Assembly (NCBI GenBank): GCA_951406725.2
Contig: OX597823.1
Location: forward strand, 34,100,001-34,164,000
DNA: 64,000 nucleotides
Direction of reading: 5' to 3'
From: Octopus vulgaris
Taxonomy: Eukaryota
Shown here: positions 1,691 through 64,000 of the stretch, piece after piece
Layout: each line of letters starts with the position of its first letter
Numbering within the stretch: position 1 is the stretch's first letter
Position numbers and translations under genes: made by a program
The notes under the pieces: model-generated
What the model was told of the DNA's origin: nothing
Seen by the model: only the letters and a program-made list of their open reading frames with translations
Database searches by the model: none

Positions 1691-2085
1691 CATCATCATC
1701 ATCATCATCATCGTGTGTATGGGTTGGATTCATGGGGTCTGGGATGCATCAGATGTGGCAGTGTTTCTACAGCTATATATGTAGTGGGTGATTTTATGTG
1801 CCACCGACACAGGTGCCAGACGAGGCTGGCAGACGGCCACCTCGGATGGTGTTTTTTATGTGCCACCGACACAGGTGCCAGACGAGGCTGGCAGCGGCCA
1901 CGCTCGGATGGTGTTTTCTTATGTGTCACCGACACGGTGCCAGACGAGGCTGGCGGACGGCCCGCTCGGATGGTGTTTGTTCGTGCCCTCAGCACGGAGG
2001 CCAGTCATTGCGGTACTGGCTATCACGTTCGGATGGTTTTCTTATGTGCCACCGCACTATACAAATTCCATTGATGTTCATCTAT
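1691..2085 (-). mobile_element. RTE LINE 3' UTR copy with ~5 tandem ~62-bp units and (GAT)n tail
   Basis: reverse complement of 63600-63966; (CAT)n at 1691-1712; repeated gtgccaccgacacaggtgccagacgaggctggc. Confidence 0.85.
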
Positions 2086-2136
2086 TTTGATTTGGTTCGA
2101 TTTGATTCGATACGATTCGATTATATATAATATATA

Positions 2137-2680: not shown

Positions 2681-3565
2681 ACACACACACACACACACAC
2701 ACATACAAACACACACATAGATGAACAATAAAATTCATTTGACTTGGGCTTTGTGTTTTCTGGGAGTTTTGTCATTGTTTTTTTTCCTACCTGATGGCTT
2801 ATACTTGTTGAATAAACTGTGAAGTGAAACTTAAAGTCTCAGTCTAACTAATTTTATTATAAACCTGACTCTATAGTATTGGGTCTCATCTTAAGTAAAT
2901 GTTGTGTTCCTATTCTTAAACTTGCTTTAAAACAATAAATTTAACTTTGTGTGAGTAACTATAAACCTGTCGATGTATTCTATATATTTGTCTGTATGTG
3001 TGTGTATCTATGAGTATGGCTCTATATATACCAGACCTGTATCTATTTTTATGCATGTGTATGTGTGTGTATATGACTTACATATGTGACAGCTATTAAG
3101 CCCATCTTAATTAACATAAATATGAGAATCTGTAACTAACAAAGCAATGTTGTTAATTAATCTAATCAAAGATAATGAGTTGAGTCTTAAAGAGATAAGT
3201 GATGGTCTGTGTGATCTAGTGTCTGCTATTTAAAAATATCAGTTTGTTTAATTACCTGGGTTAATCAGTATATTTAATTACTCACTAATATTAATTTAGG
3301 CATGGTCCTCTAATATCTGCTAAATCAATGTTTAATTGTCTTCATTCTTTTTAATTAATTTAATTGGTGGACCAAAATACATTTAAAGCTGTCTATATAT
3401 ATACATCTTACCATCTTCTCTAGCTTTTCCTCACTCCTCTCTCTCTATCTCTCTCTCCCTCTACATATACGGGACATAGGGGGAAAATTTATAGGAGAGC
3501 ATTTTGCATGCTATATATATATCAATCAGAAGATGGAGAAGATGACAATGAGGATATATGCATAT

Positions 3566-3900
3566 ATCATCATCATCATTGTCATCATCTTCATCATCAT
3601 CATCATTTGACATTTGTCTTCCATGCTGAAATGGCTTGGACAGTTTGACAGGATCCAATATCTGCTTTGGCATGGTTCCTACGGCTGGAAGCTCTTCAGA
3701 ACACCAACGACTTCACTTAGCATATCGGATGCTTTTATCGTAATCCCAGCTCTGCTGAGGCCTACAAGTAACTCGCAAGACAAAGAAAAAAACTTTTTGA
3801 ATGAGTGGAGCTCTTGAGGGGAAGGCAACTTGATGCCAAAATATGAGACATTAAAATTCAACGGGCACAGGTGTCTTGCTACAGAGGGGCTGTGTCAGTA
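3566..3900 (-). mobile_element. Diverged RTE-tail-bearing repeat
   Basis: (CAT)n followed by tttgacatttgtcttccatgctg and gttcctacggctggaagctcttc, similar to the RTE 3' terminus. Confidence 0.55.
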
Positions 3901-17236: not shown

Positions 17237-17277
<41 letters not shown>

Positions 17278-17297
17278 GTAATAATAATAATAATAAT

Positions 17298-17655
17298 CTT
17301 AATTGAGAAAGAAAGCAAACTATGCTGGATCATAGATTATAGCATGCCCAGCTGACAACAAGGTATGTGATAAGGAAGAAAGAAAAGTCGATAGATATGA
17401 CAGGTTAGCTTGGGAGGTTAAGCAGTTGTGGTTGATTGTCAGAGCCCTGAGAACAGTGAGCAAAAATCTCAAGAAGTACGTGGAACAAATAGGGGCTGCA
17501 ATAAGGGTGGAGCGCTTGCAGAAAACAGCACTGCTTGGAACCACTCGAATACTCCAGAAGGTGCTCGAAAAATAAGAGGTGTTACATTAGTTCACTGGTG
17601 GTGAACAGCTGACACCGCAGTACATCTCCAGCATTAGAAACTGTGCAAAGGCAAT
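17298..17655 (+). mobile_element. R4/Dong-like LINE 3' fragment (different subfamily)
   Basis: CWIID/IACPADNKVCDKEERKVDRYDRLAWEVKQLW..LQKTALLGTTRILQKVL; between (TAA)n arrays. Confidence 0.8.
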
Positions 17656-17692
17656 GATAATGATGATAATAATAGTAATAGTAATAATAATG

Positions 17693-17753
<61 letters not shown>

Positions 17754-17755
<2 letters not shown>

Positions 17756-18975: not shown

Positions 18976-18984
18976 TGAATAATA

Positions 18985-19620
18985 ACCCTTTCTACTGTAG
19001 CCAGATGGACCGAAAGTTTGTAGGAGGGAACCAGGGGATTACATCAACCCCAGTGTTCAGCTGGTATGTATTTTATTGACTTCTGAAAGGACAAAAGGCA
19101 AAATCAACCTTGGTAGAATTTGATCTCAGAATGTTGAAGCAGAAGAAATATTATGATTATTGTTTAGCATGTTAACGATTCTGTCACTTTGCCTCCTTGA
19201 TAATAATTATAATAATTATTTCTGCTACTGGCACACAGAAATTTTAAGGGAGAGGGCTAGTCAATTACGTTGACCCCTGTGTACAAGTGGTACTTAGTTT
19301 ATTGACCCCTAAGGATGAAAGGCAAAGTCAACCATGACAGAATTTGAACTCAGAACATAAAGACAAACGAAAAACTGCTCAGCATTTTGCCTGGCTTGCT
19401 AACGATTCTGCCATCTCACTGCCTTAGTAATGATAATTACAATAATAGCTATAATTCTGTCAAGTTTTAGGGGAGAGGGGAGAGGGGTTAACTGATTACA
19501 TCCACTCCTATACTTGATGGGTACTTATTTTATTTTATCAACACTGAAAGAAGAAAAGGCAAAGATGACCTTGGTAGGGATTGAACTCACGTTATAATAT
19601 CCAGAAGAAATGCTGCTAAA
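18985..19620 (-). mobile_element. Three tandem copies of SINE family B
   Basis: each has gattacat..acccc..ctggta..aaaggcaaagtcaacc..gaatttgaactcagaa. Confidence 0.8.
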
Positions 19621-19803
19621 TAATGTATGTATATATATATACTGTATTATATATCCATTATGGCCAATCTTAGCAATTGGTTTCATATTGGGTATTAATC
19701 TGATGTTAGATAATAGCAGAATGAAGTAATACCATGTACTTGTTTGAGCTGGCAGATGTAGAAAAGAACTCTCTCTTAATCTCTCTCTCTGTCTCTCTCT
19801 CCA

Positions 19804-19892
<89 letters not shown>

Positions 19893-20929
19893 GGGTCTAG
19901 TCTCATTGTCATTATTTTATTCTATGCTAAGGCTTCTTAGATCAATATTTAATTGATCTAGATGAAAATTTTTAATTGTTTATTAATAATAGCACATCAG
20001 GAAATTAGTTGCATTGGAATTATTAAGTTCAGTTTTAGCTCATTATTGTATTATAGAAGACTTGTGATATGTCTGTGTGTGTGTAATGACCTGCAGATAA
20101 TAACACGTTTTCTATGGGCTCTTTGACTAAATTCTTTTTCATAATGGAAGGCTTTCCTGAAACATGCTCGAAGCATTAAACAAGTTATGTATGGCAATAC
20201 AATAGCCTTGTCTTTGTCGTCATCACCATCACCTTATACATTTTACCTAACTTCTCACCTGCATAGCTTAAAAGTCTTTTTAAGAATATTCATGTTATGT
20301 ACACATTGTAATGCTTAAAGCAAATTACAATAGTCATACACACACACGCACACACAGAGTAAAATAAGGATTCAGATAGAATCAGGTACTTGAAAAGATA
20401 TGCACCAGGTAGGGTTGGAACCTGTGGTGGTAAGTATCAAATAGGATATTCCAGTTGTGTACACAGTGAAAACCAACCGTATGAGTGTTTATCCCCTAGG
20501 AGCTGGTCCAAATCATGTGTTACTTTGAATAGTACGTTGTTGGTATACTCTAGGGTGTCTGACAACTCGTAAATCCCCTTGGTGTATTATAATCAAATGA
20601 ATAATGATATACATATATACATATATACACATGCGAGCACACATACATAAGTAGTTTTTGTTTTCTTTTTTTTGACATGAGTAGACGTGTAAAAAGAAAA
20701 GAGAAAAGTTGAAAATGCACTTTGAGTCATTAAAATATTTTTTCACATATACTCAACTGGTTTAACAAGTCCATGATTTTTGAAAAATAGTGTGAATTGG
20801 AAGGACCTGGCGCCATGCTCTATTTGTCTGTTTTGTTCAGAACTTTTGTTCTGAAATAAAATCTCTTTATTTGAGCAAATAAAAAAAGGATGTCTATTGA
20901 TAAATACAAACCACAATGGAAACATATTG

Positions 20930-21135
20930 GTTTCAACTTCTGGCACAAGGCCAGCAATATTGGAGAAAGAGTTAAGTTGATTACATCGACCCCAGTACTC
21001 AACTGGTACTTATTTTATCAACCCTGAAAGGATAAAAGGCAAATTTGACCTCAGCGGAATTTGAACACAGAACACAAAGATAGATGAAATGTCACTAAGC
21101 ATTTTGTTAATGATTCTGCCAGCTCCCTGCCTTAA
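20930..21135 (-). mobile_element. SINE family B
   Basis: same motifs as 12370-12595. Confidence 0.85.
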
Positions 21136-21428
21136 GCTATGACAACATATTGAACAAACACATAAGAGAACTGTATTTCATCATCTTGCACACAAAAAAA
21201 AAAACCATGAATTCACAAACAATTAAGCTATTTCTCTGAGCTCTTTTGATGACCTGTTGTTCATACTTCCACATGGCACATTCCCCAGATTAACACAACC
21301 TTGGCTTTTAGCCTGCATCAACCAAACAAATTTTACCTCATCAGATGGTAATTTGAGTTATAATCTCTCCATAAAAAGGGGAAAATTTTCCACTCAGAAT
21401 CAAAAGAAATACAGCTTAGCCCCAGGTT

Positions 21429-21489
<61 letters not shown>

Positions 21490-22599
21490 AAGAGAGAAAC
21501 GGGAAAGAGAGGTAAAGAGAGAGAGAGATGGGAATGGGAGATAAAGAGAGAGAGAGAGGAGAGAGACGGAAATTGGAAAGAGAGGTAAGGAGAGAGAGAG
21601 AGAGAAAGAGGCAGAAAGCGTAAAAGAATGAACGAAAGCCAGGTAGAAATGGAGAACTGAGAAAGCAAAATCCAAGTGGAAAGCTTTCATTAGTTTCCTA
21701 GCATTGTATTTACAGCAAAAATCCAAACAAAACTATTTTTTTCATTATACATCTTTATTATTTTCTTTTCACAACTGTAAGAAAACATGAATCTAATATA
21801 TACATTTTTTGTGACTCAGTATTAGTTTTTGTTTGGGGGACAAAAAATCAATCAGTAATTTTTGACACAATAAAGTATTTGTATTCCATATTGTATTCTA
21901 ATCTTTGCTATACGAAAATCGATCAAAATGATTTCCGAGCAATTTCAAAGGAAGCAAAGCTCTCTCTATTCAATAGATTTTGCTCCTCATATTTTAATAA
22001 ACTGTAATTTTCTATTCCTATTCACATCATATTTTGAATGAGGTCTGAAATATTTCTGCTCACCTATTTCTCATATTTGGTCAAATATTCCATAAGACCT
22101 TGCTTGATAATTTCATGTTTTACTTAATGTTATTGCTCTTAGAGAAGCAACAAAAAGTTGTATTTATATGTTCATATATTTTCCTAACATTTCTTAACAG
22201 TAATGACAAAAATACAAAACCATATTTTTTTTTTTTTTACATCGCAGTAATTTACAAAGAAAAATTTCTTGAGGTGTATTTTCTTCACCATATTGCAAGA
22301 ATTTATAACTTCCCACGTGATTATAACTACTTCAGTTATATATTGAGATAATCTCAGATTCCTACTGAACTGTTTGTTACCAAGTTCTTTCCATCAACTT
22401 CTTGTCTTTTTTTTTTAATACTATGCATTGTATATCATACCAAAATCTTGCCATAATTTCTGTCTTTCTTTACTTGGTATGCCACTGCTTTCTGTCCCTT
22501 TAACTCTTTTCCAATGAATTGTAGTGCATCTCCCTGTACTGTATACAATAAGCTCATTATTGTTATTTGCAGACACACAAGCAGCTTTATGTTCCAAGT

Positions 22600-22950
22600 T
22601 CAAATGCTGCCGTAATTGACGTTGCTTTCATTCTCTCAGGGCCAATAAAATTAGTACCAGCTGGGTTCTGGGGTTGATGTACTCAACTCACTTTCTCCCA
22701 TTAAAATTGTTGGCCTAGTGTCAAAATTTGAAGCTGACAGAATTGTTAGCATGCCGGACAAAATGCTTAGCAACATTTCATCTGTCTTTACGTTCTGAGT
22801 TCAAATTCCACCAATGTCAGCTTTGTCTTTTATCCTCTCAGGGCCAATACAATAAGACAGCAGTCAAGAACTGGTGTCAATGTAATGGACTAATGCCCCC
22901 CCCCCTTCAAAAATTTTAGGCCTTGTGCTGCTAATAGCAGAAAGGATTAT
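22600..22950 (+). mobile_element. SINE family B, one partial and one near-full copy
   Basis: gctgacagaattgttagcatgccggacaaaatgcttagc..gagttcaaattc. Confidence 0.75.
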
Positions 22951-22954
22951 TATT

Positions 22955-23600
22955 GCACAGAACAATAAAACCGTTTCACACACACTTTCACAGTGTCTGA
23001 CAATTGTTGACTTGTGGAGTTCAGTTGAACAGCTGTTATTTTACATGTGGGATGAATCCAATGATGGGCCAAATCCATCATGTGGTTCACCCCACCACCC
23101 GCCTTTAACAAGGCAGGGCAGACAGTTCCTTTCTGTTCAGTGGTTGTGGTGAAAGAGATTATATGTTGGACGAGGTTGAAAGGATTGAGGACAGACATCT
23201 CCCTCTTTGGCCAAGCCCTCATCAACTTTTTAAAGTTCCGTTTGGGAATGGAAATGAGGATGGAAAGCAAAGTGCCACCTCTCAGTGAATTTGTGAGAAG
23301 ATGGGTGACTATGGTAAAAATGATTGCAGCAAATCCCTCTGCTCTAAGTGTGAGGTTGTAGTTTGGAGAGCAGGAGAGAGGGCTCATGCTTTTGGTGATC
23401 AGGATAATCCTGGATCTGTAGGGTTCCTTGATTGACCCTGGTTGGAGTTTCTCCTGCATCAGGAAGATTGCATCTTTCGTGTTGTCACATATTATGGATG
23501 CTTTTATTGCATTTCACTGTCTTTCTGTTTCTTTTTTTTTCATCCTTTATGTAAATCCACACACAAACTGTTGTCTGTCCACCTTATGTATGCCCTTGTG
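22955..23600 (+). mobile_element. L1/Tx1-like LINE 3' fragment
   Basis: KTVSHTLSQCLTIVDLWSSVEQLL (zinc-knuckle remnant), then WTRLKGLRTDISLFGQALINFLKFRL..EFVRRW and a T-rich 3' UTR. Confidence 0.6.
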
Positions 23601-23644
23601 GCTACTAAAAAGAATTATTATTATTATTATCATTGATTTGAATC

Positions 23645-23880
23645 AGATTCGGTCTTATTCCTGACAGAATTTATGCAGGTAGCAGGTTACTACCTGTAAC
23701 CTTAGGCATATCCACAAGCTTTCAATAGTCTTTCAAGTGCTTAAGACCTTCCTTGTAATCCCTGCTATCCCTAAGAGGCAAACTTTCTGTTGAAGCTCAC
23801 CAGAACATTCCATTCCAATCTCCTTCAACCATTTGTCTATATATTTGCTTACTGTTCCCAATGCACCAATTGTTACAACC
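23645..23880 (-). mobile_element. R4/Dong-like LINE 3' fragment
   Basis: VVTIGALGTVSKYIDKWLKEIGMECSGELQQKVCLLGIAGITRKVL; (ATT)n on both sides. Confidence 0.8.
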
Positions 23881-23924
23881 TTTATTATTATTGTTATCAT
23901 CATCATTGTCATCTTTGTCGTAAT

Positions 23925-24132
23925 ATGGTGGTGAGCTGGCAGAATTGTTAACACAACAGGCAAAATTTTTAGCATTACTTTGTCCATCTTTACGTTCTGA
24001 GTTCAAATTACACTGAAGTCAACTTTGCCTTTCATCCTTTCACAGTCGATACAATACCAGTCAAAAATTGGGACCAATGTAATTCACCTAACCTTCTCCT
24101 GAAACTGCTGGCCTTGTGCCAAAACTTAAAAC

Positions 24133-24135
<3 letters not shown>
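23925..24135 (+). mobile_element. SINE family B just upstream of a PDE8 exon
   Basis: ggtggtgagctggcagaattgttaac..gagttcaaatt..gtcaactttgcctttcatcc. Confidence 0.85.
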
Positions 24136-24189
<54 letters not shown>

Positions 24190-24284
24190 TTTCTCTATCT
24201 TTGTCTCCCCTTCTCTCTCATTTGCCTCTCCCTCCTCTTTCTCTTTCCCTCTCTCTCATCATATCTTCTATCTTTATTTTCCAG

Positions 24285-24414
24285 ACTGATGAAGAAATAA
24301 CAAAACACCTCCCCATTGTGATGCCAATCTTCTCTCGCAACACATGCAGCATTCCAAAATCTCAATGTAGCTTCATTGAGTATTTCGTTCAAGGGATGTT
24401 TGAATCGTGGTCAG
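24285..24414 (+). CDS. PDE8: PDE8-family phosphodiesterase, penultimate coding exon with invariant Gln
   Basis: ttttccag acceptor, gtaagt donor; [43 protein letters not shown], close to vertebrate PDE8 [26 protein letters not shown]; ends phase 1. Confidence 0.95.
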
Positions 24415-24837
24415 GTAAGTTAGCATTTACTTCTGTAACACTGGACTACCATGGAGCAGAAACATATCACATGTTAGTTGTACCATGTGCTACATGCTAC
24501 ATCAAAATAGTTGTGAAATAACTTGTCGTTATTGATCATCATCATCGTCATCATCATTGTCATTCCTTTCTATATTGCCCTCATCGTCTTCTCCCTTGTG
24601 CGTCTCATTCCCACATGGTAGCATGGGATGGATGAATATATTAATGTCATTTTTTAACAACCAGACACTTTTGCTGTTGCAAACCCTTAACTGTTTTTAC
24701 AACTAAAGGATCCCTTATTTGATTTGTCCTCAAAGATGTAAAACAAATGGGCAGACTGTTGATTGGATAAGTTTCAACTGCAACAACACTGCTTGCAGAA
24801 AGTCACGCTCATAGACTCCATATATAAATACAAATGC

Positions 24838-27275
24838 CCTCTTGCAGACTACCTCGTTGGCGAATGACGGGGACCTTCTCTTTGTGGTTGGTGACTTCAA
24901 TGGACATGTTGGACAACATACAGGGGGCTTCCATGGCGTACATGGAGGCTACGATTATGGTGCCCGCAACGAGGAGGGAACCAGGCTGCTGGAGTTCTGC
25001 AATGCAAATGATCTTATGGTTTGCAATACTAACTTCAGGAAACCTGCTAGTCACCTAGTCACCTACTGATCTGGCAGACACACTAGCCAAATTGACTACA
25101 TCCTCGCCAGAAAAAGGGAAAGATGGCTGCTTCTAAATGCCAAAACCTTCCCAGGCGAAGAATGTACCCCACAACATAGACTAGTAGTTAGTAACTTTAG
25201 GATCAGGGCTAAGTGGATGCCCAGAAGATGACCAGCATGGAGGAGAAGGGTCTGGAAGCTCAAAGATCCTGCAAATGGACAGAGATATAGAGACATATTA
25301 CTCAAATCCTTTGACAAAATAGGAGATATAGCTTCACACGGTGTAGAAGACAACTGGAGGTTTCTACGGGACAACCAGCTGAGAGCCACTGACCAGATCT
25401 GTGGATGGTGCAATGTCCCCTCTCGACCCAAAATAACGTCGTGGTGGAACAATGTTGTAGACAGGGCTATTAGAGAAAAGAAACAGGCTTGGAAGGACTG
25501 AAAGAACAGTGGTAGCAGAGAACTGTATCAGACTGCCAGAAGGGAAGCTAGGAGGCAGGTTTATTTAGCCAGAGGGGAAACAGATAAGAAAATATTTGCC
25601 AATGTTCTGTGCCATGAGGACCAAAGACTTGAGGTATTTCATGTTGAAAGACAGTGTGTGAGAGAGAATCGTGATGTAGGAGAGAAATGTGTTCGCATGG
25701 ATGATAGTTCTCTTGCACTAAATGAGGCTACAAAGAGAGATACTTAGAGACATCACTATGAAAGGTTGCTGAATAAAGAAACTGAATGGGAGAAAGAGAG
25801 TCTGCTGAATGTCAACCCAACAGAGGGACCAGCTATCTGAGTTGACAGTACCTTGGTAGATAAAGCAATTAAGAGTATGAAGACAGGGAAAGCCCCCGGC
25901 CCATCAGGAATTACTGCAGAGATGCTCAAAATATCTGGCAGTTTCAGCTATAGCCTAGTCACCCGTATAGTTAACCAGGTAATTCATGAAGGAGTTATAC
26001 CCAATGACTGGTGTAGCAGCATAATAGTCAACTGCTACATAGGTAAAGGTAACGTTTTTGATACAAATAATTACAGAGGTAACAAGTTGTTGGATCAGGT
26101 AATGAAGGTCACAGAGAGGGTCATAGCCCAACTAATTAGGGAGAGAGTCAGTTTAGATGAGATCCAGTTTGGGTTCATGCCAGGGAAAAGCACCACTGAT
26201 GCTATATTTCTGGTAAGACAGCTGCAGGAGAAATACCTAGCCAAGGATAAACCTCTGTACTTGGCTTTAGTTGACATAGAGAAAGCCTTTGACAGGGTCC
26301 CCCGATCCCTTATCTGGTGATCAATGAGGAAACTAGGGATAGATGAATGCTTAGTGAGAGCTGTGCAAGCCATGTACAGGGATGCTGTAAGTAAGGTGAG
26401 GGTTGGCAACGAGTACACTAAAGAATTCAAAGTAGAGGTAGGGGTCCACCAAGGTTCAGTCCTCAGCCCCCTCCTATTTATCATAGTCCTCCAGGCAATA
26501 ACGGAGGAATTCAAGACAGGATGCCCCTGGGAGCTCATATATGCTGATGACCTTGCTCTAATTGCTGAGTCACTATCAGAACTAGAGGCAAAGTTTCAAG
26601 TGTGGAGACAAGGATTAGAATCAAAGTGCCTTAAAATCAACCTAGCTAAAACCAAAGTCTTAATATGTAGGAAGGCAGGCAAATCACAAACGCCTTCAGG
26701 TAGATGGCCCTGCTCGATCTGTAGAAAAGGCGTAGGTAGAAACTCTATAAGATGCACCCAGTGTAAGCTATGGACACATAAGAGGTGCAGCAGTATCAAA
26801 GGAAGATTAACTGGGAAGATAGCTTTTGTATGTGGCAGATGCTCAGGAGCAATAAACATTGAAAATGTGCAGAGAACACATTCCAGGGAGAAAAACTAGA
26901 AGTAGTTGATAGCTTCCATTACCTAGGTGACCAATTCAGTAGCAGGGGAGGATGTGCTGAAAGTGTAGCTGCTAGAATAAGAATAGCCTGGGCAAAGTTC
27001 AGAGAGCTCTTACCTCAGCTGGTGACAAAGGGCTTCTCGCTCAGAGTAAAAGGTAGACTGTATGATGCATGTGTATGAACAGCCATGCTACATAGCAATG
27101 AAACATGGGTTGTGACTGCTGAGAACATGTGTAAGCTCGCAAGGATTGAAGCCAGTATGATCCGATGGATGTGAAATGTCTGTGTGACCAAGTTAGTAGT
27201 GGGGGTGGATGCTCAGAGAGTGTCACCACTAGAATATGAATAGCCTGGGCAAAGTTTAGAAAGCTTCTGCCCCTA
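24838..27275 (+). mobile_element. 5'-truncated, inactivated RTE LINE (APE endonuclease end, RT, PHD) in the last PDE8 intron
   Basis: GDFNGHVG, QIDY, FGFMPGKSTTDAIF, QGSVLSP, YADD, C4HC3; several in-frame stops; closely similar to 61117-63140. Confidence 0.95.
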
Positions 27276-27620
27276 GAATCTGATCTGACAGTGTTTCCTT
27301 CCTAATGCCAACCACTCAAAGAGTGTAGTAGGTGCTTTTTACGTGCCACTGGCACAGGGGCCAGGGGAGCTGGCATCAACCACGACCAGATGGTGCTTTT
27401 TACATGCCACTGGCATGGAAGCCAGTCAAAGCTTTTTATGTGCTACCAGCACAGGGCTTACAACTACAATTTCCATTTGATTTGATTTTGATATTGCTGA
27501 TGTTGATGTACTTGACTCAATAGGTCTCCTCAAGCATGGCATGTCACCCTATGATCCAAGGTACTTTTGAGTGGGCTGGTTATGCGACACTGGTGTAGGT
27601 TACAGCTGTAGACTCACTCA
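27276..27620 (-). mobile_element. RTE 3' UTR copy (3 units), tail deleted
   Basis: ttcctaatgccaaccactc..ggtgctttttacgtgccac repeats. Confidence 0.8.
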
Positions 27621-38177: not shown

Positions 38178-38179
38178 GT

Positions 38180-38625
38180 CATCATCATTGTTTAACGTCC
38201 GTTTTCCATGCTGGCATAGGTTGGGTCTAGGAAACCAGGAGGCTGCACCAGGCACCAGTCTGATCTGGCAATGTTTCTACAGCTGGATGCTCTTCCTAAT
38301 GCCAACCACTCCGAGAGTGTAGTAGGTACTTTTTACGTGCCACCAGCACAGGGGCCAGAGGAGCTGGAATCAACCACGATCGGATGGTGCTTTTTACATG
38401 CCACCAGCATGGAAGCCAGTCAAAGCAGCACTGGCATCGGCCACATTCGGATGGTGCTTTTTTTTTTTTTATGCTACTGGCATGGGGCTCACAACTACAA
38501 TTTCCATTTAATTTGATTTTGATATTGCTGTTGATGTTGATGTACTTGACTCAATAGGTCTCCTTAAACACGGCATGTCACCCTACAATCCAAAGTAATT
38601 TTGAGTGGGCTGGTTATGTGACACA
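38180..38625 (-). mobile_element. RTE 3' UTR copy (3 units)
   Basis: catcatcattgtttaacgtccgttttccatgctggc tail; ggtgctttttacatgccaccagcatg units. Confidence 0.85.
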
Positions 38626-38844
38626 GCTGTTTTATCCTGAATGTGCCTCTGGATCAAAGGGTCAGAAGCCCAGTGGGAATCATTGTCAGTGCACATCAAC
38701 AGAGGCAATAAAAACACTACATTACCAAGCCATATCCATTCAAGGTTTGTGGCTGGCTTTTATTTTTTGTTTTTTTTATGCTGTTCTTGGGTAATCATCA
38801 GATTTATGTATGTGTATGCTTGTGTGTGTGTGTTTGTGTGTGGT

Positions 38845-39830: not shown

Positions 39831-41862
39831 ACTGTGCCTTCACACACACACACACACGCACACATGCACGTGCACACACACACACACACACGCACACATG
39901 CACGTGCACACACACACACACTTTTCATCAACAAAAATAAATTTCAAACTCACAAACTGCTGAATCAACGTCACATGACTAATGGAATTAACAAATCCAT
40001 ATTCAAGCATAAATGTTGCAGACTTCCCCTGAATTTTGCAGTGTCTTTTGTATATAAATCTCCCAATCATGTTAAAAACTATAGATTTTGACAAGATTCA
40101 GTTAGTCATAAAAATATAACTATTGAAAGAATTTAATAATTGTTGGTGTCTATTGTGAATGAGGTTTTTACCTGTTGTGTTGACTTTTAGCTGTTGTCAT
40201 GTTACTTTCACCTGCCAAGTTAGATTGAATGCAGTTAAGTTGGTTACACATTAGAGTTTTCACATATATTTACATGACAGTGTTTCATGGGCATTGATTC
40301 CCTAATTAAATCATTAATAAATAATATCACTGAATTCTAATTTGTTGCTTAATTCATCAACAAGTATTAAGAGAAAAAGAAATCAAAGTCAAGAATTCAG
40401 ACAAATTTGCTTGATAAGATGCAAAAATAAACATAGATGGCAAAAACAGGAAGCCTTTTGGCAGGAACTTGTTTCTAAAATTAAATTAAGCTTAGTTTCT
40501 TGTATAAAAGGATGCTTAGTTTTTAGCTCAATTTGAACTATCAATTTCTGTGGCTTGGAATTTGATAGCAGCTGTGATATTTGCAATGCAGGACTTTAAG
40601 TTTAGCTTTTATTTCATGTACCAAATATTCACATTGGTTGAACGACAAGGAGTTGTTGTAACCCTTTGAATTTCCTTATTTGCTGGCATCTAAGACACAC
40701 ACTTACAAAAGACACTATTTCAAATATTTACAAAGCTGTTTTGTGGGAAAACATTTTTTAGTATCTTTCACAAAATATTTATTAAAAAGAAATATTAAAG
40801 TGTTTTTTTAAAGAAAAATATCTGATTCTGTGCATATAAAAACTGGAATAAAGTATGAAATCATACAAAGTAAGTTTGACTAACATTTAAAGGAAACTAA
40901 ATTAAATTTTCCATTGCAAAAAAGAAACAGATTGGTATCAATGAAACCCAGTATATGCAAACAAAACTAAACATGTTTGTAAAAATTGAAACAAAACAAA
41001 ACAGCTGAGTACAAATAAGTGGAAAGAACAGCCATTGCAAATGGCTGACATGAAAGTCTGTTAACATTCTATTCATCTTTCTCAGAGAATTTTTCGTTTA
41101 AATAATAAGCAAACATTTCTTAAAGGTAACAACACAATTATTAAATAAAGTAAGACATTTATTAAGTTTAGTTTATGTATGTTGAGGAAAGATGGCACAA
41201 AGGTACAATGTGACTGCCCAACATAACTGCCAATATACCATAAACAATATTTGCAAATTTGTACTAACAGACTTTTGATAATTTGGCTTATTTCAAATAA
41301 TTCTTTTTATTGACAACAACTATGGTGCGTAGGGAACTTATTCTCCTCTGGCTCCCCAAGCCAATAATTCTCAGTCTCCCATCTGCAATATGGCTGCATT
41401 TGATACAAAGCAATTTTTTGATACATTTAAAATTAAAAATAACAGGTCTTATATGCACGCAAATACAGCCCCTATCAGAACTTGGTAAAAGAACTCTAGT
41501 TGATAATTGTCAAAACATGTATAGTCCAGCGATAACGAATGAAAAACAGACATGATATCATTTTTATGAATCTCATCTATGATTAAAGAAGAATAGCTAT
41601 TGTGTGAGATAAGAGTTGGAAGGCTTATGAAGCCATGACAGGGGTTTGTTATTTATTGTCGCAAAATGAAAAGAATGAATAAGAGAATAGATAAAAAAAT
41701 ACTTGGGAAAATATTGAAAATAGCATGTAGCTGTGTTTCAATAACATATGTTTATAAGAAAAGTTGCTCCCATATACAAACACACACACACACGGTGTGT
41801 GTGTAATTTACCACTTTTTGGTGAATTAGTAGAATGCGTGTGTGTGTGTCCATATATATACC

Positions 41863-42330
41863 ATCATCATCATCGTTGTCATCATTTAATGTCTGCTTTC
41901 CATGCTGGCATGAGTTGGATAGTTTGACTGAGGACTGGCAATCCAGAAGGCTGCACTAGGCTCCAATCTGATCTGGCACGGTTTCTACAGCTGGATGCCC
42001 TTCCTAGCGCCAACCACCTCGAGAGTGTAGTGGGTGCATTTTACATGCCACTGGCCACAAGGGCCAGTCAGGTGGTACAGGCATCGACCATGCTTCAGTG
42101 CTGCTTTTTACGTGCCACTAGCATGGGAGCCAGTTAGGTGGTACTGGCAATGACCATACTTGAATGGCGCTTTTTATATGCCAGTAGCATGGGACCAGTC
42201 AGTTGGCACTGGCATCGACCAAGCTCGAATGGTGCTTTTTACATGTTGCCGGCATGGGTGCCAGTCAGGCAGTACTGGCATTGGCCACAACAATGACTCA
42301 CTTGACTCAACAGGTCTTCACTGTTTCTTC
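41863..42330 (-). mobile_element. RTE 3' UTR copy (4 units)
   Basis: (CAT)n tail, gtttctacagctggatgcccttccta, repeated gctttttacgtgccac. Confidence 0.85.
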
Positions 42331-43086: not shown

Positions 43087-43769
43087 TCTGTATATCATCT
43101 TCACCATCAGTTAGCATTCACTTTTCAATGCTCACATGACTCAGATGATATTTGTAAAACCAGGTTCTCTGCAGCAGGCTGCTCTTCCTATTTCCAACCC
43201 TCACTTGTTTCCAAAGTCATATTTCCACATCGATGGACATATTTTCATGGAAGACTAGAATCAACCAATAGTGTTTATGTGACGGTGACCCACATTAACA
43301 AATCACCACATGACATCAAGACAATGGCATGCACACACACACACACATGTTTGCGATGATGATGACCTGAAAAATTCGGTTAATTCACCAAACAGTGACA
43401 TATATATTTGCCCCTATCCACAGATAGATATGTATGCATGCACAGTTAAATACTAAGCAGTAATATTACAGACATATGTACGTGTTGATGCTTTACATTG
43501 TTCAAGTCTCAGTGGTTCTGGCCATGCTACAGTTTGCACCTTATTCTTCAATATTTATATATTCATTTATAGATGGTGTGTTTATTGAGTTTATCTTTGT
43601 CATTTGAGATAAACTATTTCATCTTCTTTGTTCTTCTCTTAGAATTGTTTTTCTTATTTATCAGTATGTTGTCCAGTGATGTAGAGCAACACATGAGCAC
43701 CCATCTAGCTAGCTCACACAGGATTTGTTTTGCTTTTAGCATTTATTTTTTATCTTTTGTGTGTTTCAC

Positions 43770-44230
43770 TTGTTAGACTGTGGCCATGCTGAAGCACTGC
43801 CTTGAGGGACTTGGTTGAACAAATCAAACTCAGTACTAACTCTTCGAAGTTTGGTACTTATCCTATTGGCCCTTTTGCCAAGCCACAAAGCTACAGAGAC
43901 ATAAACAAACAAACACTAGTTGTTGAGCAGAGTGGGGACAAATATAGACACAAATACACACACATACAATAGGGTTCCACACAGTTTTTACCTACCAAAT
44001 CCACTGCACAGGAGCCAGTCCAGCAGCACTGGCAATGATCTCGCTCGAATGTTTTTTCATGTGCCACTGGCAAAAGTGCCAGTAAGGCGATGCTGGTAAC
44101 GATCATGCTCGAATAGTGCTTCTTACATGCCACCAGCACGGAAGCCAGTTAGCCACTCTGGCATCGATCACGCTCGGATGGTGATCCACTAGCACGGATG
44201 CCAGTCATCAAATTTGATTTCAATTTTACT
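43770..44230 (-). mobile_element. SINE family A 3' part joined to an RTE 3' UTR unit array
   Basis: gactgtggccatgctg..ctaccaaatccact, then atgtgccactggca / cttacatgccaccagcacg units. Confidence 0.7.
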
Positions 44231-44354
44231 TAATGATTGCCATATCTGTTTACACAGAACTTTACATGTATATGCAGACGTGTATGTTTTTGTAAGTGAT
44301 TAATCACTTAACAAATTAGTCCAAAGATATTTGTATATTAATATTAGAAGATTT

Positions 44355-46899: not shown

Positions 46900-47622
46900 A
46901 GGCAATGGCTAGTGACTGAGACCTTTGAAAATATACTGTGCTTGAGAAGACCCAGCAAGCCAAATGAGACCATAACCTCATGGCCTATGAAGGGGCATAA
47001 CCAGCCCACTTATGCGTACCTTTCCTTCTTTGGGTACTAAATTCTGCTTGCGAAGACCTGTTGAGGCAAGTGAAATCGAAATCAAATTCGATGACTGGCA
47101 TTTGTGCTATTGGGGCACTAAGAGTACCATCCGAGCGCGATTGTTGACAGAGCTGCTAACTGTCTTCCGTACCAGTGGCATGTAAAAGGCACCATTCGAG
47201 CGTGATCGTTACCAGCATCGCCATACTGGCACTTGTGCCCCATGCTAGTGGGGCACTAAGAGCACCATCTGAGCGTGATCATTGCCAGAGCGGCTAGCTG
47301 GCTTCTGTGCCAGTGGCATGTAAAAGGCACCATTCAAGCGTGATCAATACCAGCATCACCATACTGGCACTTGTGCCGGTGGCACATAAAAAAACATTCA
47401 AGTGAGGTCGATGTCAGTACCGTCTGACTGGCCCTCGTGCCTGTGGCACGTAAAAGCACCCACTACACTCTCAGAGTGGTTGGTGTTAGGAAGGGCATCC
47501 ATCTGTAGAAACTCTGCCAGATCAAGATTGGAGCCTGGTGCAGCCATCTGGTTTGCCAGTCCTCAGTCAAATCGTCCAACCCATGCTAGCATGGAAAGCA
47601 GATGTTAAACGATGATGATGAT
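46900..47622 (+). mobile_element. RTE 3' end (last codons plus 3' UTR with 6 units and (GAT)n tail)
   Basis: homologous to 63390-63966. Confidence 0.9.
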
Positions 47623-47656
47623 CATCATGATATGTGTGTGTGTACATATATACATG

Positions 47657-58109: not shown

Positions 58110-61100
58110 ATCATCCATCATTTTAAATCCAGGTTTTGTCCCCATTAACAGTGGTGGCCGGATCTACTTCAATGCCATAGCAACTGTCCTCACACCATCT
58201 TGCCATCTTGTCCAGTTTTGAGCATCCTCCCTTCTCAAGCCAACCCTCCCAATCTCCTCCTCCATCTGTCCCCTCCACATTTTTCCTTAATCTACCTTAC
58301 TTTTGCTGTCCATTTACCTCAAATTCTAGCACCCTCTTCAGAACATGCTCTTCATCCCTCCTCAACACATGCCCATACTACCGCACTCCATTCTCCTTGC
58401 TAGCCATTCCACTGATTCCTCCAACCCCAGCATCCCCATCAAGTCCTCAGTCCTCCTCTTATCAAACAGTCTCACACCACACATTTCTCTCACCATTGCT
58501 TTCTCGGTCCTTCTCAAAATTGCCATCTCTCTCTCCCTCAAACACCATGTCTCACTCCTGTACAACATTGCAGCTCTCACACAACTCCTATAGACCTTTC
58601 CTTTCATCTTCCCAAATAATAATTCTCCACATTCCCTGAACTTCACCCAGCCAAGTCTCATTCTTGCTGTCACATCCACCACTTACATCTACCGTCTCCC
58701 AAAATAACAAAACCCTCTTATCATCTCTACTTCCTCACATAGTGTTTCGACTGACTTCGCCAGCCCTCCAGCTCCTTTCTCACATCTTCACAAATAAATT
58801 CTCTTGCCAGTCTTGGGGTCACCTTCCTCATTTACGTACATCTACCATGAATCCATTTCTCACATCTTGTACACAACACCGCATTTGCCTTTACCCTCCT
58901 CCCACATACACCATTTGGATCCACTCCTTTGTCTTCCCGTGGTTTACCTTCAAACCCTTGCTTTCAAATGCCTCCTTCCATTTCCAGGACTTCTTCCTCA
59001 ATCCCTCCATCATCTCACACATCAGAACAAGGTCATCCACATACACTATCTCCATTATCAATCCCTCTCTTGCACTTTCCATCACCACATCAACCACTAT
59101 TGCAAACAACAATGGTGATAACACAGACCCCTGATGCACACCGACTTTCACTGCAAACTCCTCCGACAGCTCTGATCCAATTTTCACACTTGTCTTTACC
59201 CCTTCATACAAACTCATCACTGCCCTCACTATTACACCCCTTTTCCTCAATGCCCACTCAATCACCTTCCTTAGAACCCTATCAAATACTTTCTTCAGAT
59301 CAACGAAGCACATGTACAACTCCTCCTTATTTTGGTATTCCTCTTGCAATCTCTTTACAATGAACACTGCATCTATTGTCCCCCTTCCTGGCATAAAACC
59401 AAATTGCATCTCATCCACTTCCTTCTGAATTCTCCTCTCCAACACCCTTTCCACTATCTTCATTGCATGCTCCAATAACTTCACTCCACTATACGCCCCA
59501 CAACCCATCACATCCCCCTTTCCCTTGAAGATCGGTACCACCACACTTAGTACCCAATCATCTGGCATTCCTCTTCCATCCAGCACACCCTGGCAGAACT
59601 CCATCAACACAACAGACCCTATCTTTCCACTTGCAGTTATCACTTCCACACTTACTTCTGATGGATCAGCTGCCTTTCCTGTTTTCATTTCCTTCATTGC
59701 CTCCACTACTTCTTCCTGACTAACCCTCTCCACTGGCCCCTTCACCACAACAACTTCCATCCTCTGATGCTATCTTTTCTCCTCATTCATAATTCCCTCC
59801 ATATGCTCCTTCCAAACTCTTCCCCTGTCCTTCTCACTAAAATTCAACCTTTCATCACTTCCCCTCATGCATCTTCCTCCTTCAGCATCTCTTCCATCAT
59901 TTTTTACATTGATTTAATAAACCTAAACACTCTTTCTGGGTTCTCATCCAGCCTGCTCAACTTCTCCTCAGCCTCCTAACTCATAGATCTCGCAACCACC
60001 CTCTTTGCACAATTCTTCATGTTATTATACCTGGCTTTCATTTGCTCAGTCCTATTATTGCATAAAGCTTTGTGCGCCTCCTTCTTCCTTGCTATCCCTC
60101 ACCTCCTCTTTCCACCACCCCATATCTCCTCGATCACTCCTACCTTTTGTCCTTTCACACCCTTTGTCACATGCTTTTAGTACCCTTTCTTTAAAAGACT
60201 TCCACAAATCTGGTGCATCAGTGCTTCCCAACTCCTCAACTCTCTCCTCAAACCTTACTCTTGTTTCTTCCTCCTTCAGTTTCCACACCTTTCTCCTCTC
60301 AACCGTTCCCTTTCTCACACACTCTTTCTAACTTTCCTCTTACCCAAGTTAGCAACCACCAACCTGTACTGCAACTCCCCTGGTATTGTCTTCACATCTC
60401 TCAGATACTTTCTCATTTTCCTGCCAACCAACACAAAATCGATCTCTGTCTCATTCCCTCCTGCACTGAAAGTCACTTTCCTTTTCTCTGTTTTCCTAAA
60501 CCATGTATTTGCCTCACACAACTCTTTCTCATCGCAAAACTCCGACAGCATCTTTCCTTCCCCAATTCCATTTCCCCCAGCACACCCTCAAAGCCCTGGA
60601 TCCATTTCCAAACATGTCCATTAAAATCACCCATACCCACCTTCTCAATGATTTCTTCCTTCACCAAAACTCCCACACCTCCAGTCCCCTTGCTATTTCC
60701 CGACTACCACAACTTGTACTTTCTTCCTTCCTTTGACCCCCACAAATCTTGCACCCTGGCCCCTCCACCTAACCCCCTGCACACAGCACACATCCACCCT
60801 CCTCTTACTCAATTCCTCATACACCTCAGTTCCCCTTCCACACAGACTATCCACATTCCAGCTTCCCAACCTCACCCCAAGTTTCTGCTCAGGATGTTGG
60901 CTTACGCAATCCAGGATGAAGGTTTGCACCTTCCTTAATCAGGTACGCATGTGCAGCCCACCTCAACCTACAGGCTGGCTGGTGCCCATTCTCCTTTGCT
61001 ATTATCATAGCAGGATTTTCTACATGGAGCATTCCCTTGCTTTCCCCCAACCTCAGTGGTCCTGAGACCAAAGCTTCTACCATGATTTTTAAGAAATGTG

Positions 61101-61110
61101 GTGGAAAATT
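58110..61110 (-). mobile_element. Near-full-length degraded RTE LINE (second family)
   Basis: APE start LGVRLGSWNVDSL..DVCCVQ, GDFNGHV, EIDF, QFGFMPGRGTIDAVF, QGSVLSP, YVDD, PHD remnant, WVKFRECGELL; frameshifts and stops. Confidence 0.93.
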
Positions 61111-63469
61111 AGCTGTATGTACCCCACAACATGAACTGGTAGTTAGTGACTTTAGGATCAGGACTAAGAGGACGACCAGAAGACGACCAACATGGAGAAG
61201 AAGGATCTGGAAGCTTAAAGATCCTGCGAATGGACAGAGACTTAGGGACATATTACTTGAAGCCTTTGACAAAGTAGAAGGGGATATAGCTTCACACGAT
61301 GTGGAAGACAACTGGAGGTCTCTAAGGGACAACCTGCTGAGAGCCACGGACCAGATCTGTGGCTGGTGCAAAGTCCCCTCTCAACCCAAAATAACGTGGT
61401 GGTGGGACAAGGTTGTAGACAGGGCTATTAGAGAAAAGAGACAGGCTTGGAGGGACTGGAAAAATGGTGGTAGCAGGGAATTGTATCAGACTACCAAAAG
61501 AGGAGCTAGGAGACAGGTTTATTTAGCCAGAGGGGAAGCAGATAAGAAAAAATTTGCCAATGTTCTGCGCCGTGAGGACCAAAGACTTGAGGTATTCCGT
61601 GTTGCAAGACAGTGTCTGAGAGAGAATCGTGATGTGGTAGGAGAGAAATGTGTTCGTATGGATGATGGTTCACTTGCGCTAAATGAGGATGCAAAGAGAG
61701 AGGTTTGGAGACATCATTATGAGAGGCTGCTAAATAAGGAATGGGTGAAAGAGAGTCTGCCGAATGTCGACCCAACAGAGAGACCAGCTATCCGAGTTGA
61801 CAGTTCCTTAGTAGTTAAGGCAATTAGTAGCATGAAGACAGGGAAAGCCCCAGGCCCATCAGGAATTACTGCAGAGATGCTTAAAATATCTGGTAGTGTC
61901 AGCTATAGCCTAGTCACCCGTATAGTTAATCAGGTGATACACGAAGGAGTCATACCCAATGACTGTTGTAGCAGCATAATAGTCAACTGCTACGAAGGTA
62001 AGGGTAACGCTTTAGATACAAATAATTACAGAGGTATCAAGCTGTTGGATCAGGTAATGAAGGTTATGGAGAGGGTCATAGCCCAACTGATTAGGGAGAG
62101 AGTCAGCTTGGATGAGATGAAGTTTGGTTTCGTGCCAGGAAAAAGCACCACTGATGCCATATTTCTGGTGAGACAGCTGCAGGAGAAATACCTAGCCAAG
62201 GATAAGCCCCTGTACCTGGCTTTCGTTGACATGGAGAAAGCCTTTGACAGGGTTCCCCGATCCCTTATCTGGTGGTCAATGAGGAAACTAGGGATAGATG
62301 AATGGTTAGTGGGAGCTGTGCAAGCCATGTACAGAAACGCTGTAAGTAAGGAGAGGGTTGGCAACCAGTACACTAAAGAATTCAAAGTAGAGGTAGGGGT
62401 CCACCAAGGTTCAGTCCTCAGCCCCCTCCTATTTATCATAGTCCTCCAGGCAATAACGGAGGAATTCAACACAGGATGCCCCTGGGAGCTCCTATATGCT
62501 GATGACCTTGCTCTAATTGCTGAATCACTATCAGAACTAGAGGCAAAGTTTCAAGTGTGGAGACAAGGATTAGAATCGAAGCGCCTTAAAATCAACCTAG
62601 CTAAAACCAAAGTCTTAATATGTAGGAAGGCAGGCAAATCACAAACGCCTTCAGGTAGATGGCCCTGCTCGATCTGTAGAAAAGGCGTAGGTAGAAACTC
62701 TATAAGATGCACCCAGTGTAAGCTATGGACACATAAGAGGTGCAGCAATGTCAAAGGAAGGCTAACTGGGAAGATAGTTTTAGTATGTGGCAGATGCTCA
62801 GGAGCAATAAACACTGAAAATCCTCAGAGACCAACTTCCGCCACATTCCAGGGAGAAAAACTAGAAGTAGTTGATAGCTTCCGTTACCTAGGAGACCAAG
62901 TCAGTAGCGGGGGCGGGTGTGCTGAAAGTGTAACTGCTAGAGTAAGAATAGCCTGGGCAAAGTTCAGAGAGCTCTTACCTCTGCTGGTGACAAAAGGCCT
63001 CTCGCTCAGGACAAAAGGCAGACTGTATGACGCATGTGTAAGAACAGCCATGCTACATGGCAGCGAAACATGGGCTGTGACTGCTGAGGATATGCGTAAG
63101 CTCACAAGAAATGAAGCCAGTATGCTCCGATGGATGTGTAATGTCAGTGTTCATACTCGACAGAGTGTAAGTACCTTGAGAGAAAAGTTGAACCTAAGAA
63201 GCATCAGTTGTGGTGTGCAAGAGAGACGTTTGCGCTGGTATGGTCATATAGCGAGAATGGATGAAGATAGTTGTGTGAAAAAGTGCCACACCCTGGCGGT
63301 TGAGGGAACCTGTGGAAGAGGTAGACCCAGGAAAACCTGGGACGAGGTGGTGAAGAACGACCTTCGAACTTTAGGTCTCACCGAGGAAATGACCAGAGAC
63401 CGAGACCTTTGGAAGTATGCTGTGCGTGGGAAGACCCGGCAGGACAAGTGGGACCAAGTGAGACCATAA
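61082..63469 (+). CDS. RTE reverse transcriptase ORF lacking most of the endonuclease, with an inserted PHD finger (~795 aa from the first ATG)
   Basis: uninterrupted frame; KAPGPSGI, NYRGIKLL, FVDMEKAFDRV, QGSVLSP, YADD, C4HC3, SFRYLG, RRLRWYGH, GRGRPRKTW. Confidence 0.85.
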   Translation: MIFKKCGGKLAVCTPQHELVVSDFRIRTKRTTRRRPTWRRRIWKLKDPANGQRLRDILLEAFDKVEGDIASHDVEDNWRSLRDNLLRATDQICGWCKVPSQPKITWWWDKVVDRAIREKRQAWRDWKNGGSRELYQTTKRGARRQVYLARGEADKKKFANVLRREDQRLEVFRVARQCLRENRDVVGEKCVRMDDGSLALNEDAKREVWRHHYERLLNKEWVKESLPNVDPTERPAIRVDSSLVVKAISSMKTGKAPGPSGITAEMLKISGSVSYSLVTRIVNQVIHEGVIPNDCCSSIIVNCYEGKGNALDTNNYRGIKLLDQVMKVMERVIAQLIRERVSLDEMKFGFVPGKSTTDAIFLVRQLQEKYLAKDKPLYLAFVDMEKAFDRVPRSLIWWSMRKLGIDEWLVGAVQAMYRNAVSKERVGNQYTKEFKVEVGVHQGSVLSPLLFIIVLQAITEEFNTGCPWELLYADDLALIAESLSELEAKFQVWRQGLESKRLKINLAKTKVLICRKAGKSQTPSGRWPCSICRKGVGRNSIRCTQCKLWTHKRCSNVKGRLTGKIVLVCGRCSGAINTENPQRPTSATFQGEKLEVVDSFRYLGDQVSSGGGCAESVTARVRIAWAKFRELLPLLVTKGLSLRTKGRLYDACVRTAMLHGSETWAVTAEDMRKLTRNEASMLRWMCNVSVHTRQSVSTLREKLNLRSISCGVQERRLRWYGHIARMDEDSCVKKCHTLAVEGTCGRGRPRKTWDEVVKNDLRTLGLTEEMTRDRDLWKYAVRGKTRQDKWDQVRP

Positions 63470-63966
63470 CCCGTGGCCTCTACCTGGGACGTAGCCAGCC
63501 CACTTATGCATACCGTTCCTTCTTGTGACACAAACCCTACTTGTGAAGACCTGTTGAGGCAAGTGAAAATCAAAATCCAAATCGAAATCTTTCAACATCA
63601 ATGGAAATTGTAGCTGAAATACCAGTGCCGGTGGCACGTAAGAGAACTGCCGGTGGCACGTAAGAGAACTGTCTGAACGTGGCCCTTGCCAGCGCCACCC
63701 CGACTGGCCTCCATGCCGGTGGCACGTAAAAAGCACCATCCGATCATGGCTGTTTGCCAGCCTCGTCTGGCACCTGTGCAGGTGGTACATAAAAAGCACC
63801 CACTACACTCTCGGAGTGGTTGGCGTTAGGAAGGGCACCCAGCTGTAGAAACACTGCCAGATCAGACTGGGCCTGGTGCAGCCTCCTGGCTTCCCAGACC
63901 CCAGTTGAACCGTCCAACCCATGCTAGCATGGAAAACGGACGTTAAACGATGATGATGATGATGAT
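61117..63966 (+). mobile_element. 5'-truncated young RTE LINE with 3' UTR unit array and (GAT)n tail
   Basis: homology to the 24838-27275 copy starts at atgtaccccacaacat; ends ggacgttaaacgatgatgatg. Confidence 0.95.
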
Positions 63967-64000
63967 GTATGTATGTATATAAATAAATATATACACACAC

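Follow-up and report, generated by a model that had tools for sequence, protein, structure and literature searches.

Proteins of stringent LINEs bind a 3' stem-loop of their RNA (PMC4176376), and the R2 proteins of birds and turtles bind a pseudoknot of the 3' UTR, with compensatory rescue (PMC12180492). This pseudoknot of A-clade R2 lies upstream of the terminal stem in a non-LTR 3' UTR, is present in a single copy 6 nt from that stem, and was shown to be protein-bound by cryo-EM and rescue (PMC12180492). Bipartite RTE SINEs have been described as well, and HaSE1 is composed of a tRNA part, an unknown body, an RTE 5' part and an RTE 3' part (PMC5786205). The domains of SINE bodies that are conserved across phyla have been called a major enigma and are stated as not found in LINEs (PMC5804259). 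In octopus, RTE-2_OV is an RTE-clade LINE whose 3' UTR is mostly microsatellite from the end of the ORF (PMC9115989).

We analyzed a 64-kb stretch of microsatellite-rich animal DNA from Octopus vulgaris (hereafter the window) in which the 3' UTR of an RTE element carries an array of structured units. Mobile elements with tandem repeats are already known, as are LINEs with a structured tail and RTE elements of bipartite layout. What is new here is the 3' context, that is, an array, a 5'-UTR motif and a tail that follow a LINE ORF in the layout of a bipartite SINE. Like R2 of the A clade, the octopus array would place a pseudoknot upstream of a terminal stem, whereas its units belong to another clade and occur in three to six copies, at a distance of over 110 nt from the terminal stem. 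Because the 3' UTR of RTE-2_OV is mostly microsatellite, it seems to be another family than the array-bearing RTE, and the excerpts of two octopus repeat papers, PMC9115989 included, do not mention the array. Among the open-licence papers listed by our searches, none describes such an array or a pseudoknot of a cephalopod RTE.

A tandem array in the 3' UTR of an RTE element

The ORF ending at 63469 presents an RVT_1 match (E=2.7e-30 in a domain search), and among named proteins the closest, at 83% with 73% of the query covered, comes from Octopus bimaculoides. Full-length relatives of 1040-1100 aa carry a PF03372 endonuclease, RT and a PHD finger in a single ORF. Based on this ORF layout and on the tail, rather than on a tree, we label the array-bearing element as an RTE-clade LINE. 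It is 5'-truncated near 61117, where it abuts the 5' end of a minus-strand RTE, and the open frame as listed from 60920 overlaps the 5' end of this second, opposite-strand element. The interval 58120-63966 thus holds two different RTEs head to head, the minus-strand one (58.2-60.9 kb) being decayed and nearly full-length. A further piece of the ORF of the array-bearing RTE was found at 24836-27265; it is 90% identical to 61117-63150, presents a local duplication, and ends against the opposite-strand tail copy at 27.3 kb.

Table 1. Features of the array-bearing RTE element, its copies and its relatives in the 64-kb window.
Positions	Strand	Feature	Basis
61117..63469	+	5'-truncated RTE-clade ORF: RT, PHD-like finger, C-terminus	
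63470..63623	+	3' UTR leader: diverged repeat of the ORF end, then A-rich spacer	by eye; self-BLAST did not return the repeat
63624..63671	+	first unit, present as a 22-nt tandem duplicate that has lost the S2 partner but retains the S1 hairpin and the A-rich strand	
63688..63708	+	hairpin B (GCCAG/CUGGC), long-loop type	
63712..63737	+	26-nt core; S1 63712-16/63722-26, L1 63717, candidate S2 63718-21/63734-37, A-rich L3 63727-33	
63738..63774	+	spacer: 18-nt linker, hairpin B (63756-63771), 3-nt joint	
63775..63800	+	terminal 26-nt core	
63806..63852	+	5-bp hairpin, then RTE 5'-UTR motif (GGUUGG..AGGAAGGGCA.CC..GUAGAAAC)	
63911..63966	+	RTE terminal stem (CGUCC/GGACG around inner hairpin), UUAAA, (GAU)n	
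61018..61052	-	related 5'-UTR motif at its native site before the ORF of the second RTE	
1691..2107	-	5'-truncated copy, 5 units	
27276..27620	-	5'-truncated copy without its tail; 3 units, the first incomplete	
38179..38630	-	5'-truncated copy, 3 units	
41852..42325	-	5'-truncated copy, 4 units	
44003..44231	-	copy with 4 units (2 partial), fused to an unrelated SINE body	
46900..47631	+	copy that begins at the ORF end; 6 units, among them a 138-nt higher-order dimer carrying a core indel variant	
3561..3800	-	diverged relative (61-64% identical) with a single degenerate module of hairpin + AUAAAAG-CAUCC; RTE 5'-UTR motif and tail follow	

The array starts at 63624, 155 nt past the stop of this RT and PHD-finger ORF, and its assignment to an RTE 3' UTR in a preliminary description of this DNA stands. 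The majority core of 26 nt reads CGUGC-C-GGUG-GCACG-UAAAAAG-CACC. An internal unit is formed by this core, a linker of 17-18 nt, a GCCAG/CUGGC hairpin with a loop of 5-11 nt (hairpin B), and a joint of 2-4 nt, and complete units are spaced 60-73 nt. First, internal and terminal units present three spacer types and only the 26-nt core is common to all; internal and terminal units diverge exactly after CACC. Public contigs yielded the same majority core. The interval 63380-63980 was matched by 164,383 contigs of one run (X1), and one unit was matched by 12,243-25,316 contigs per run in four out of four runs labelled as four organisms. The array-bearing repeat is very abundant in these four public runs, with the limit that contig depth gives no copy number. 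A covariance model of the unit returned 15 matches, all inside the window, and none in 89 other loci; the unit was not found in the two common SINE families of the window.

We recovered all seven copies at the positions first proposed, and they carry three to six full or partial units, in agreement with the variable unit number that had been reported. The 63.5 kb copy has three units and a 22-nt partial duplicate; this copy and the one at 47 kb are continuous with the ORF end. Unit turnover is visible in partial, deleted and higher-order units. The GCCAG/CUGGC hairpin was also confirmed: across the 13 units with a complete spacer, pairwise divergence is 0.03-0.14 in the stems of S1 and hairpin B versus 0.48-0.49 in the hairpin-B loop (0.48) and the 3-nt joint. 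Two of the related copies present peculiarities of their own. The single-module relative at 3561-3900 (minus strand) has a TATA-like stretch upstream, and an out-of-register 4-bp complement in this heavily decayed copy could be an altered S2. At 43741-44231 (minus strand), an array copy is joined inside a unit to a common CORE-like SINE body at a short shared stretch, by template switch or deletion.

The spread of the array by 5'-truncated copies was upheld. It had been suggested that the units block nucleases or stabilise the RNA; as stable pseudoknots they would then give rise to short 3' RNAs that are retrotransposed. In six of the seven array copies the 5' end falls no more than ~205 nt upstream of the first unit, and no copy starts within the array, which is consistent with this reading, as are the compact geometry and the A-rich loop. 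However, the 5' ends lie ~35, 50-80, 70, 140, 150-170 and 205 nt upstream without any pile-up just before S1, ordinary 5' truncation accounts for the start pattern, and Rfam gave no match in its favour at E up to 10. The scatter of 5' ends over ~35-205 nt in these six copies argues against a 5'-3' nuclease block at the first unit, and we consider protection from nucleases improbable.

The preliminary description left room for the motif being already known, and no Rfam family was found to match it: the 64 kb yielded no match at gathering score, and two copies of the array gave, at E up to 10, chance-level or microsatellite matches only. The same search bears on the possibility that each unit is a small self-cleaving ribozyme of the pistol, twister or HDV type. 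S1 followed by the A-run presumably resembles P1 of pistol, and the short-loop hairpin B presumably resembles P3/L3 of HDV. A ribozyme cleaving in the 3' UTR would, however, sever the ORF from its tail, and no ribozyme family was matched at E up to 10 in two copies of the array. Ribozymes have been reported at the 5' ends of RTE elements (excerpts of PMC5786205; PMC8501958), but a pistol ribozyme needs a 6-bp pseudoknot and three stems (PMC6154101) whereas the unit loop has only 5 nt. We discarded HDV-like, twister and hammerhead ribozymes on the lack of a family covariance-model match, and pistol on its 5-nt loop and the lack of an Rfam match. Self-cleavage is the least probable of the readings considered here, and we regard it as very improbable.

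Base pairing in the array units

Base pairs were counted in 22 of the 24 units, leaving out those at 42058 (indel) and 63646 (partial duplicate); about five degenerate units lie outside this set. Each pair of S1 holds in 18-22 of the 22 units, and 92% of the cells of the S1 pair-count alignment are paired, with three of the five pairs presenting two-sided change, mostly of the CpG type. Indeed, the CpGs at positions 1-2, 6-7 and 14-15 were lost in 17, 15 and 15 of the 22 units, respectively. When both S1-partner CpGs had changed by one step, the directions of change were complementary in a ratio of 8:1 (8/9 units, p=0.02), as compared to 3:4 and 4:3 for the non-partner CpG controls, and the coupling reached 10/11 with two double hits added. 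Since the units share ancestry, this coupling represents ~7/8 independent events by our own count, with likely duplicates merged. We identified one non-CpG compensatory change in S1 (pair 5-11 of unit 1936). S1 is supported by these comparative data, and the five pairs CGUGC/GCACG stand as first proposed. The pair-preserving variants that had been listed for the units are present, but most of them reflect CpG decay.

Single CpG changes in S1 produced four wobbles versus three mismatches. Because wobbles are not preferred, DNA hairpin repair explains the coupling equally well as RNA selection, and hairpin-templated DNA repair, without RNA selection, could be behind the complementary changes at the S1 CpGs. 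CpG decay also accounts for the C/U variation of L1 and for the AGUG form of S2. Window-wide, ~70% of the unit CpGs have decayed as compared to a pairwise divergence of ~10% at the other S1 sites, so the array repeats were probably methylated in the germ line.

S2 presented a different picture in the 20 of 22 units whose downstream anchor places the 3' strand. Its four pairs hold in 11, 15, 18 and 16 of these 20 units, and no compensatory change was detected among them, in a sample with few master-level changes. Pair 7-26 is G-C in 10 units and A-C in eight, and none of these eight was rescued, so that the 4-bp GGUG/CACC stem of the preliminary description gained no support. It had also been set beforehand that S2 should be better conserved than its flanks. 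In the small sample of 13 complete-spacer units, the two S2 strands diverge by 0.29 and 0.19 versus 0.27 for the linker, which does not bear this out; the non-CpG sites of S1 diverge by 0.09, and the unique sequence between copies by 0.10-0.15. The pair-count tool scored S2 as 61% paired, but the alignment it used was in part misregistered for this stem. At 63624 and 63646 the partner strand of S2 is missing.

Some observations point in favour of S2, namely the uncommon geometry in shuffled sequences, an L3 of 7 nt in 13/20 units, and the divergence point after CACC. Some pseudoknot of matching geometry was obtained in 80 of 3000 dinucleotide shuffles of the UTR, and in 6/3000 when an A-rich loop was imposed as well, in a test designed after the motif had been seen. 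A strict scan for all-Watson-Crick pseudoknots was passed by a single array unit (38411) and by two unrelated matches at 5167-5168. In 19/22 units the L1 base is able to pair with position 10, which yields a 6-bp triloop hairpin of -8.7 kcal/mol versus about -6.9 for the pseudoknot without coaxial stacking (nearest-neighbour, summed by hand); such sums fail to separate the two folds. A 1-nt loop spanning a 4-bp stem is sterically marginal, and an S2 of 3 bp with an L1 of 2 nt would be less strained. We presume that this 3-bp register would tolerate the common AGUG form. Two other pairings were considered. An alternative S2 between the loop CGG and the linker CCG was dropped because terminal units are devoid of that linker, and ACCA/UGGU, a competing hairpin of the linker, is disrupted wherever the linker is of the GAUC type. 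Of the H-type pseudoknot as a whole, S1 stands, paired and CpG-coupled, and S2 is left without compensatory change. From this balance of counts and modelled geometry, the presence of a compact H-type pseudoknot in the units appears about equally likely either way.

Luteoviral pseudoknots such as those of BWYV and PEMV have a 5-bp S1 and an A-rich loop and follow a slippery site. The octopus core shares the compact H-type geometry of the luteoviral -1 frameshift pseudoknots, which lie in coding overlaps and possess an unpaired junction nucleotide (excerpts of PMC1149493), whereas the octopus units are non-coding, arrayed, and have no junction nucleotide in the 4-bp register. The luteoviral (BWYV-type) label given earlier is therefore not appropriate for this array, which lies past the stop codon.

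A bipartite 3' end and its likeness to SINE bodies

Downstream of the array, a piece of RTE 5' UTR is joined to an RTE 3' tail without any ORF between them (63818-63966), which corresponds to the bipartite RTE layout. The motif at 63818-63852 sits just before the start codon of the RTE ORFs of locus L001, locus L121 and the second RTE of the window, and it lies 20-25 nt ahead of the first ATG in L001 and L121. It is found directly before the matching RTE tail in the non-coding elements L127 and L132, and also inside tRNA-headed or headless short elements elsewhere. Searching the genome contigs for this motif returned 24 matches; the 10 that are eukaryotic-repeat-like were used, and the other 14 were dropped as bacterial chance matches. 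Hairpins of 5-7 bp with different sequences precede the motif in four families (63806-63852; 61018-61070, minus strand; L001, 190-255; L062, 1890-1945), which suggests a conserved structured element beside the RTE start codon. At L001 157-186, just upstream of the motif, we also observed a candidate H-type pseudoknot with stems of 4 bp and 5-6 bp and a CUAAAC loop.

It is conceivable that the module is a displaced 5'-UTR cassette for translation or ribosome engagement, in which the units help the RNA to meet the ribosomes making the RTE protein, as proposed for SINE hitch-hiking. The proximity of the motif to the first ATG in L001 and L121 would agree with this, as would the L001 candidate with its UAAA loop. 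In contrast, we found no such pseudoknot ahead of the motif in L127, L132, L137, L139, the second RTE of the window or the spacer of L121; only one of seven non-array regions is positive, an A/U-only match in L121 aside. A role in translation seems unlikely.

The terminal stem covaries over 12 tails, with 83% of the cells paired and 5/10 pairs showing two-sided change. None of 500 shuffles reached its covariation score, although kinship among the sequences can inflate this test. The terminal stem and (GAU)n are common to L002, L055, L121, L127 and L132, and two Hydractinia-type proteins (P0003, P0005) end in the peptide encoded by the terminal stem of the window. We fetched 79 RTE loci, 27 of which reach the ORF end. 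For 11 of these 27 by script, and for more by eye, an AAA + microsatellite end lies 74-105 nt past the last aligned residue. Since these relatives run almost directly from ORF to tail, the array-bearing element has ~440 extra bases between the two, and the array is absent from the fetched RTE relatives. S1 of the unit, with its CGU../..ACG pairing and the U and A-run behind it, is similar to the terminal stem. The latter, however, surrounds a second hairpin, which is missing from the array units.

The closest layout was found in HaSE1 of a moth, which shares with the array element the order of body, RTE 5' part, RTE 3' tail and (GAU)n. When the first 21 nt of the core and one flanking base are set against the HaSE body, 19 positions agree and two gaps are needed (by eye, with no E-value), and in both cases a UGCCA/UGGCA hairpin comes next. 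HaSE1, HaSE3 and the Deu-RTE SINE EbuSINE2 differ from the octopus cassette in possessing an RNA-derived head, whereas the cassette has none and the window contains 0 tRNA genes. Moreover, the HaSE families are SINEs, and the cassette forms the 3' UTR of an autonomous LINE with its module multiplied three to six times. The excerpts of PMC5786205 give no structure for the HaSE body.

The Deu/Nin domain also resembles the octopus core: it contains a tandem pair of motifs, each with CGU../..ACG and then U and an A-run (excerpts of PMC4824008, PMC4758252 and PMC5804259). By eye, its first motif presents an S1 of 5 bp, an L1 of 1 nt and an S2 of 4 bp, as in the octopus core, and its second motif (Nla_Nin) ends nearly letter-for-letter as the octopus terminal unit. 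The first motif differs from the octopus core in a junction loop of 2-3 nt, an L3 of 5 nt and other S2 letters. The octopus cassette also lacks the RNA-derived Pol III head of Deu/Nin SINEs. The octopus unit spans ~25 nt of a domain of 70-120 nt, for a likeness of ~20-25 nt judged by eye only. In the published consensuses, read by eye, S1 of the first motif is CGUCC/GGACG in hagfish EbuSINE2, CGUGU/GCACG in HaSE1, AGUCU/AGACU and ACUCU/AGAGU in two snail families, and GGUCU/AGACC and GUUCU/GGAAC in two bivalve families. For S2, also by eye, most molluscs have UCGG/CCGA and hagfish has UCAG/CUGG. One S1 mismatch is present in Pan_3, Lsa_Nin, Nla_Nin and NuNu; S2 has 3 bp in HaSE1 and TeGr and is disrupted in CrVi; and for Lottia and Pan_2 the sequence is truncated before S1. 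The second motif keeps its stem, with S2 possible in only some families.

An H-type pseudoknot can thus be drawn for the first motif of Deu/Nin, and between hagfish, molluscs and a moth both of its stems show compensatory changes. None of the open-licence papers listed by our searches describes a pseudoknot for Deu/Nin domains; the alignment figures of SINE papers, Repbase and Dfam could hold one. From this short likeness, homology between the octopus core and the Deu/Nin domain appears evenly balanced. A broader proposal would be that the core of Deu/Nin and of the HaSE body is a conserved compact H-type pseudoknot (5-bp S1, 1-nt L1, 4-bp S2, A-run in the S1 groove) serving as a dock for retroposon proteins, of which the octopus LINE captured and multiplied a minimal version; we consider this possible and rather doubtful. 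Homology to the Meta domain was also considered and was not seen in the published BivaMeta consensus. Viral contigs returned no match for the unit, the RTE protein, the Nin first motif, the 5'-UTR motif or the HaSE core; 40 matches to the Nin second motif were set aside, since the S1 hairpin is missing around them and they resemble matches to coding sequence.

Docking sites or neutral expansion

Taken together, the array, the 5'-UTR motif and the tail may constitute a SINE-like body with relatives in other phyla. We infer that the terminal stem is recognised by the RTE protein. Because the unit stem resembles this terminal stem of the LINE, our best reading is that a captured SINE-like body was multiplied and may provide extra docking sites for the LINE's own protein. 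We hold this reading tentatively, as somewhat short of an even chance, and recognition by the RT, which the preliminary description had listed first, remains the best functional guess for the array. Under the docking reading, a template switch or recombination would have put a cassette of body, RTE 5' part and RTE tail behind the ORF, and units would then be gained and lost by slippage or unequal exchange between identical cores. In the RNA, the A-rich strand would pack on S1, and S2 may close, perhaps in half of the scenarios we envisage, as a compact H-type pseudoknot in equilibrium with the 6-bp triloop hairpin. Binding of the RTE protein to the units would raise RNP loading, and the genomic copies would afterwards decay neutrally, mainly at CpG. 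Two observations speak against docking: relatives spread without the array, and S2 is without compensatory change.

Both observations are shared with a neutral alternative, which comes close behind the docking reading and which we regard as possible. The array would then be a minisatellite, that is, a captured hairpin piece multiplied by slippage or unequal exchange with no job, and S2 would be a chance complement. Unit number indeed varies freely, with partial, deleted and higher-order units, S2 is unsupported, and the relatives lack the array. In addition, a 4-nt complement at a fitting distance is expected in ~4-10% of cases given a 5-bp stem and a 5-nt loop, by our own estimate. What neutral expansion explains less well is that the stems of S1 and hairpin B are near-constant as compared to the hairpin-B loop and joint, that one core was kept across three spacer types, and that all seven array-bearing copies hold at least three units. 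If the array is neutral, it is a minisatellite of the ordinary kind, located within a repeat that is among the commonest of the genome.

With this element, a LINE is available that carries three to six copies of a SINE-like body module, and it gives the Deu/Nin core a concrete candidate fold that is open to probing and rescue mutants. If a SINE-core pseudoknot was truly captured, the copies would constitute a natural dose series on what the conserved domains of SINEs do.

Finally, several of the loci compared above or related to them (L121, L125, L127, L129-L132 and L137-L139) are eukaryotic RTE/SINE sequences in prokaryotic genome records, where they probably represent contamination. L121 among them is a head-to-tail RTE tandem.
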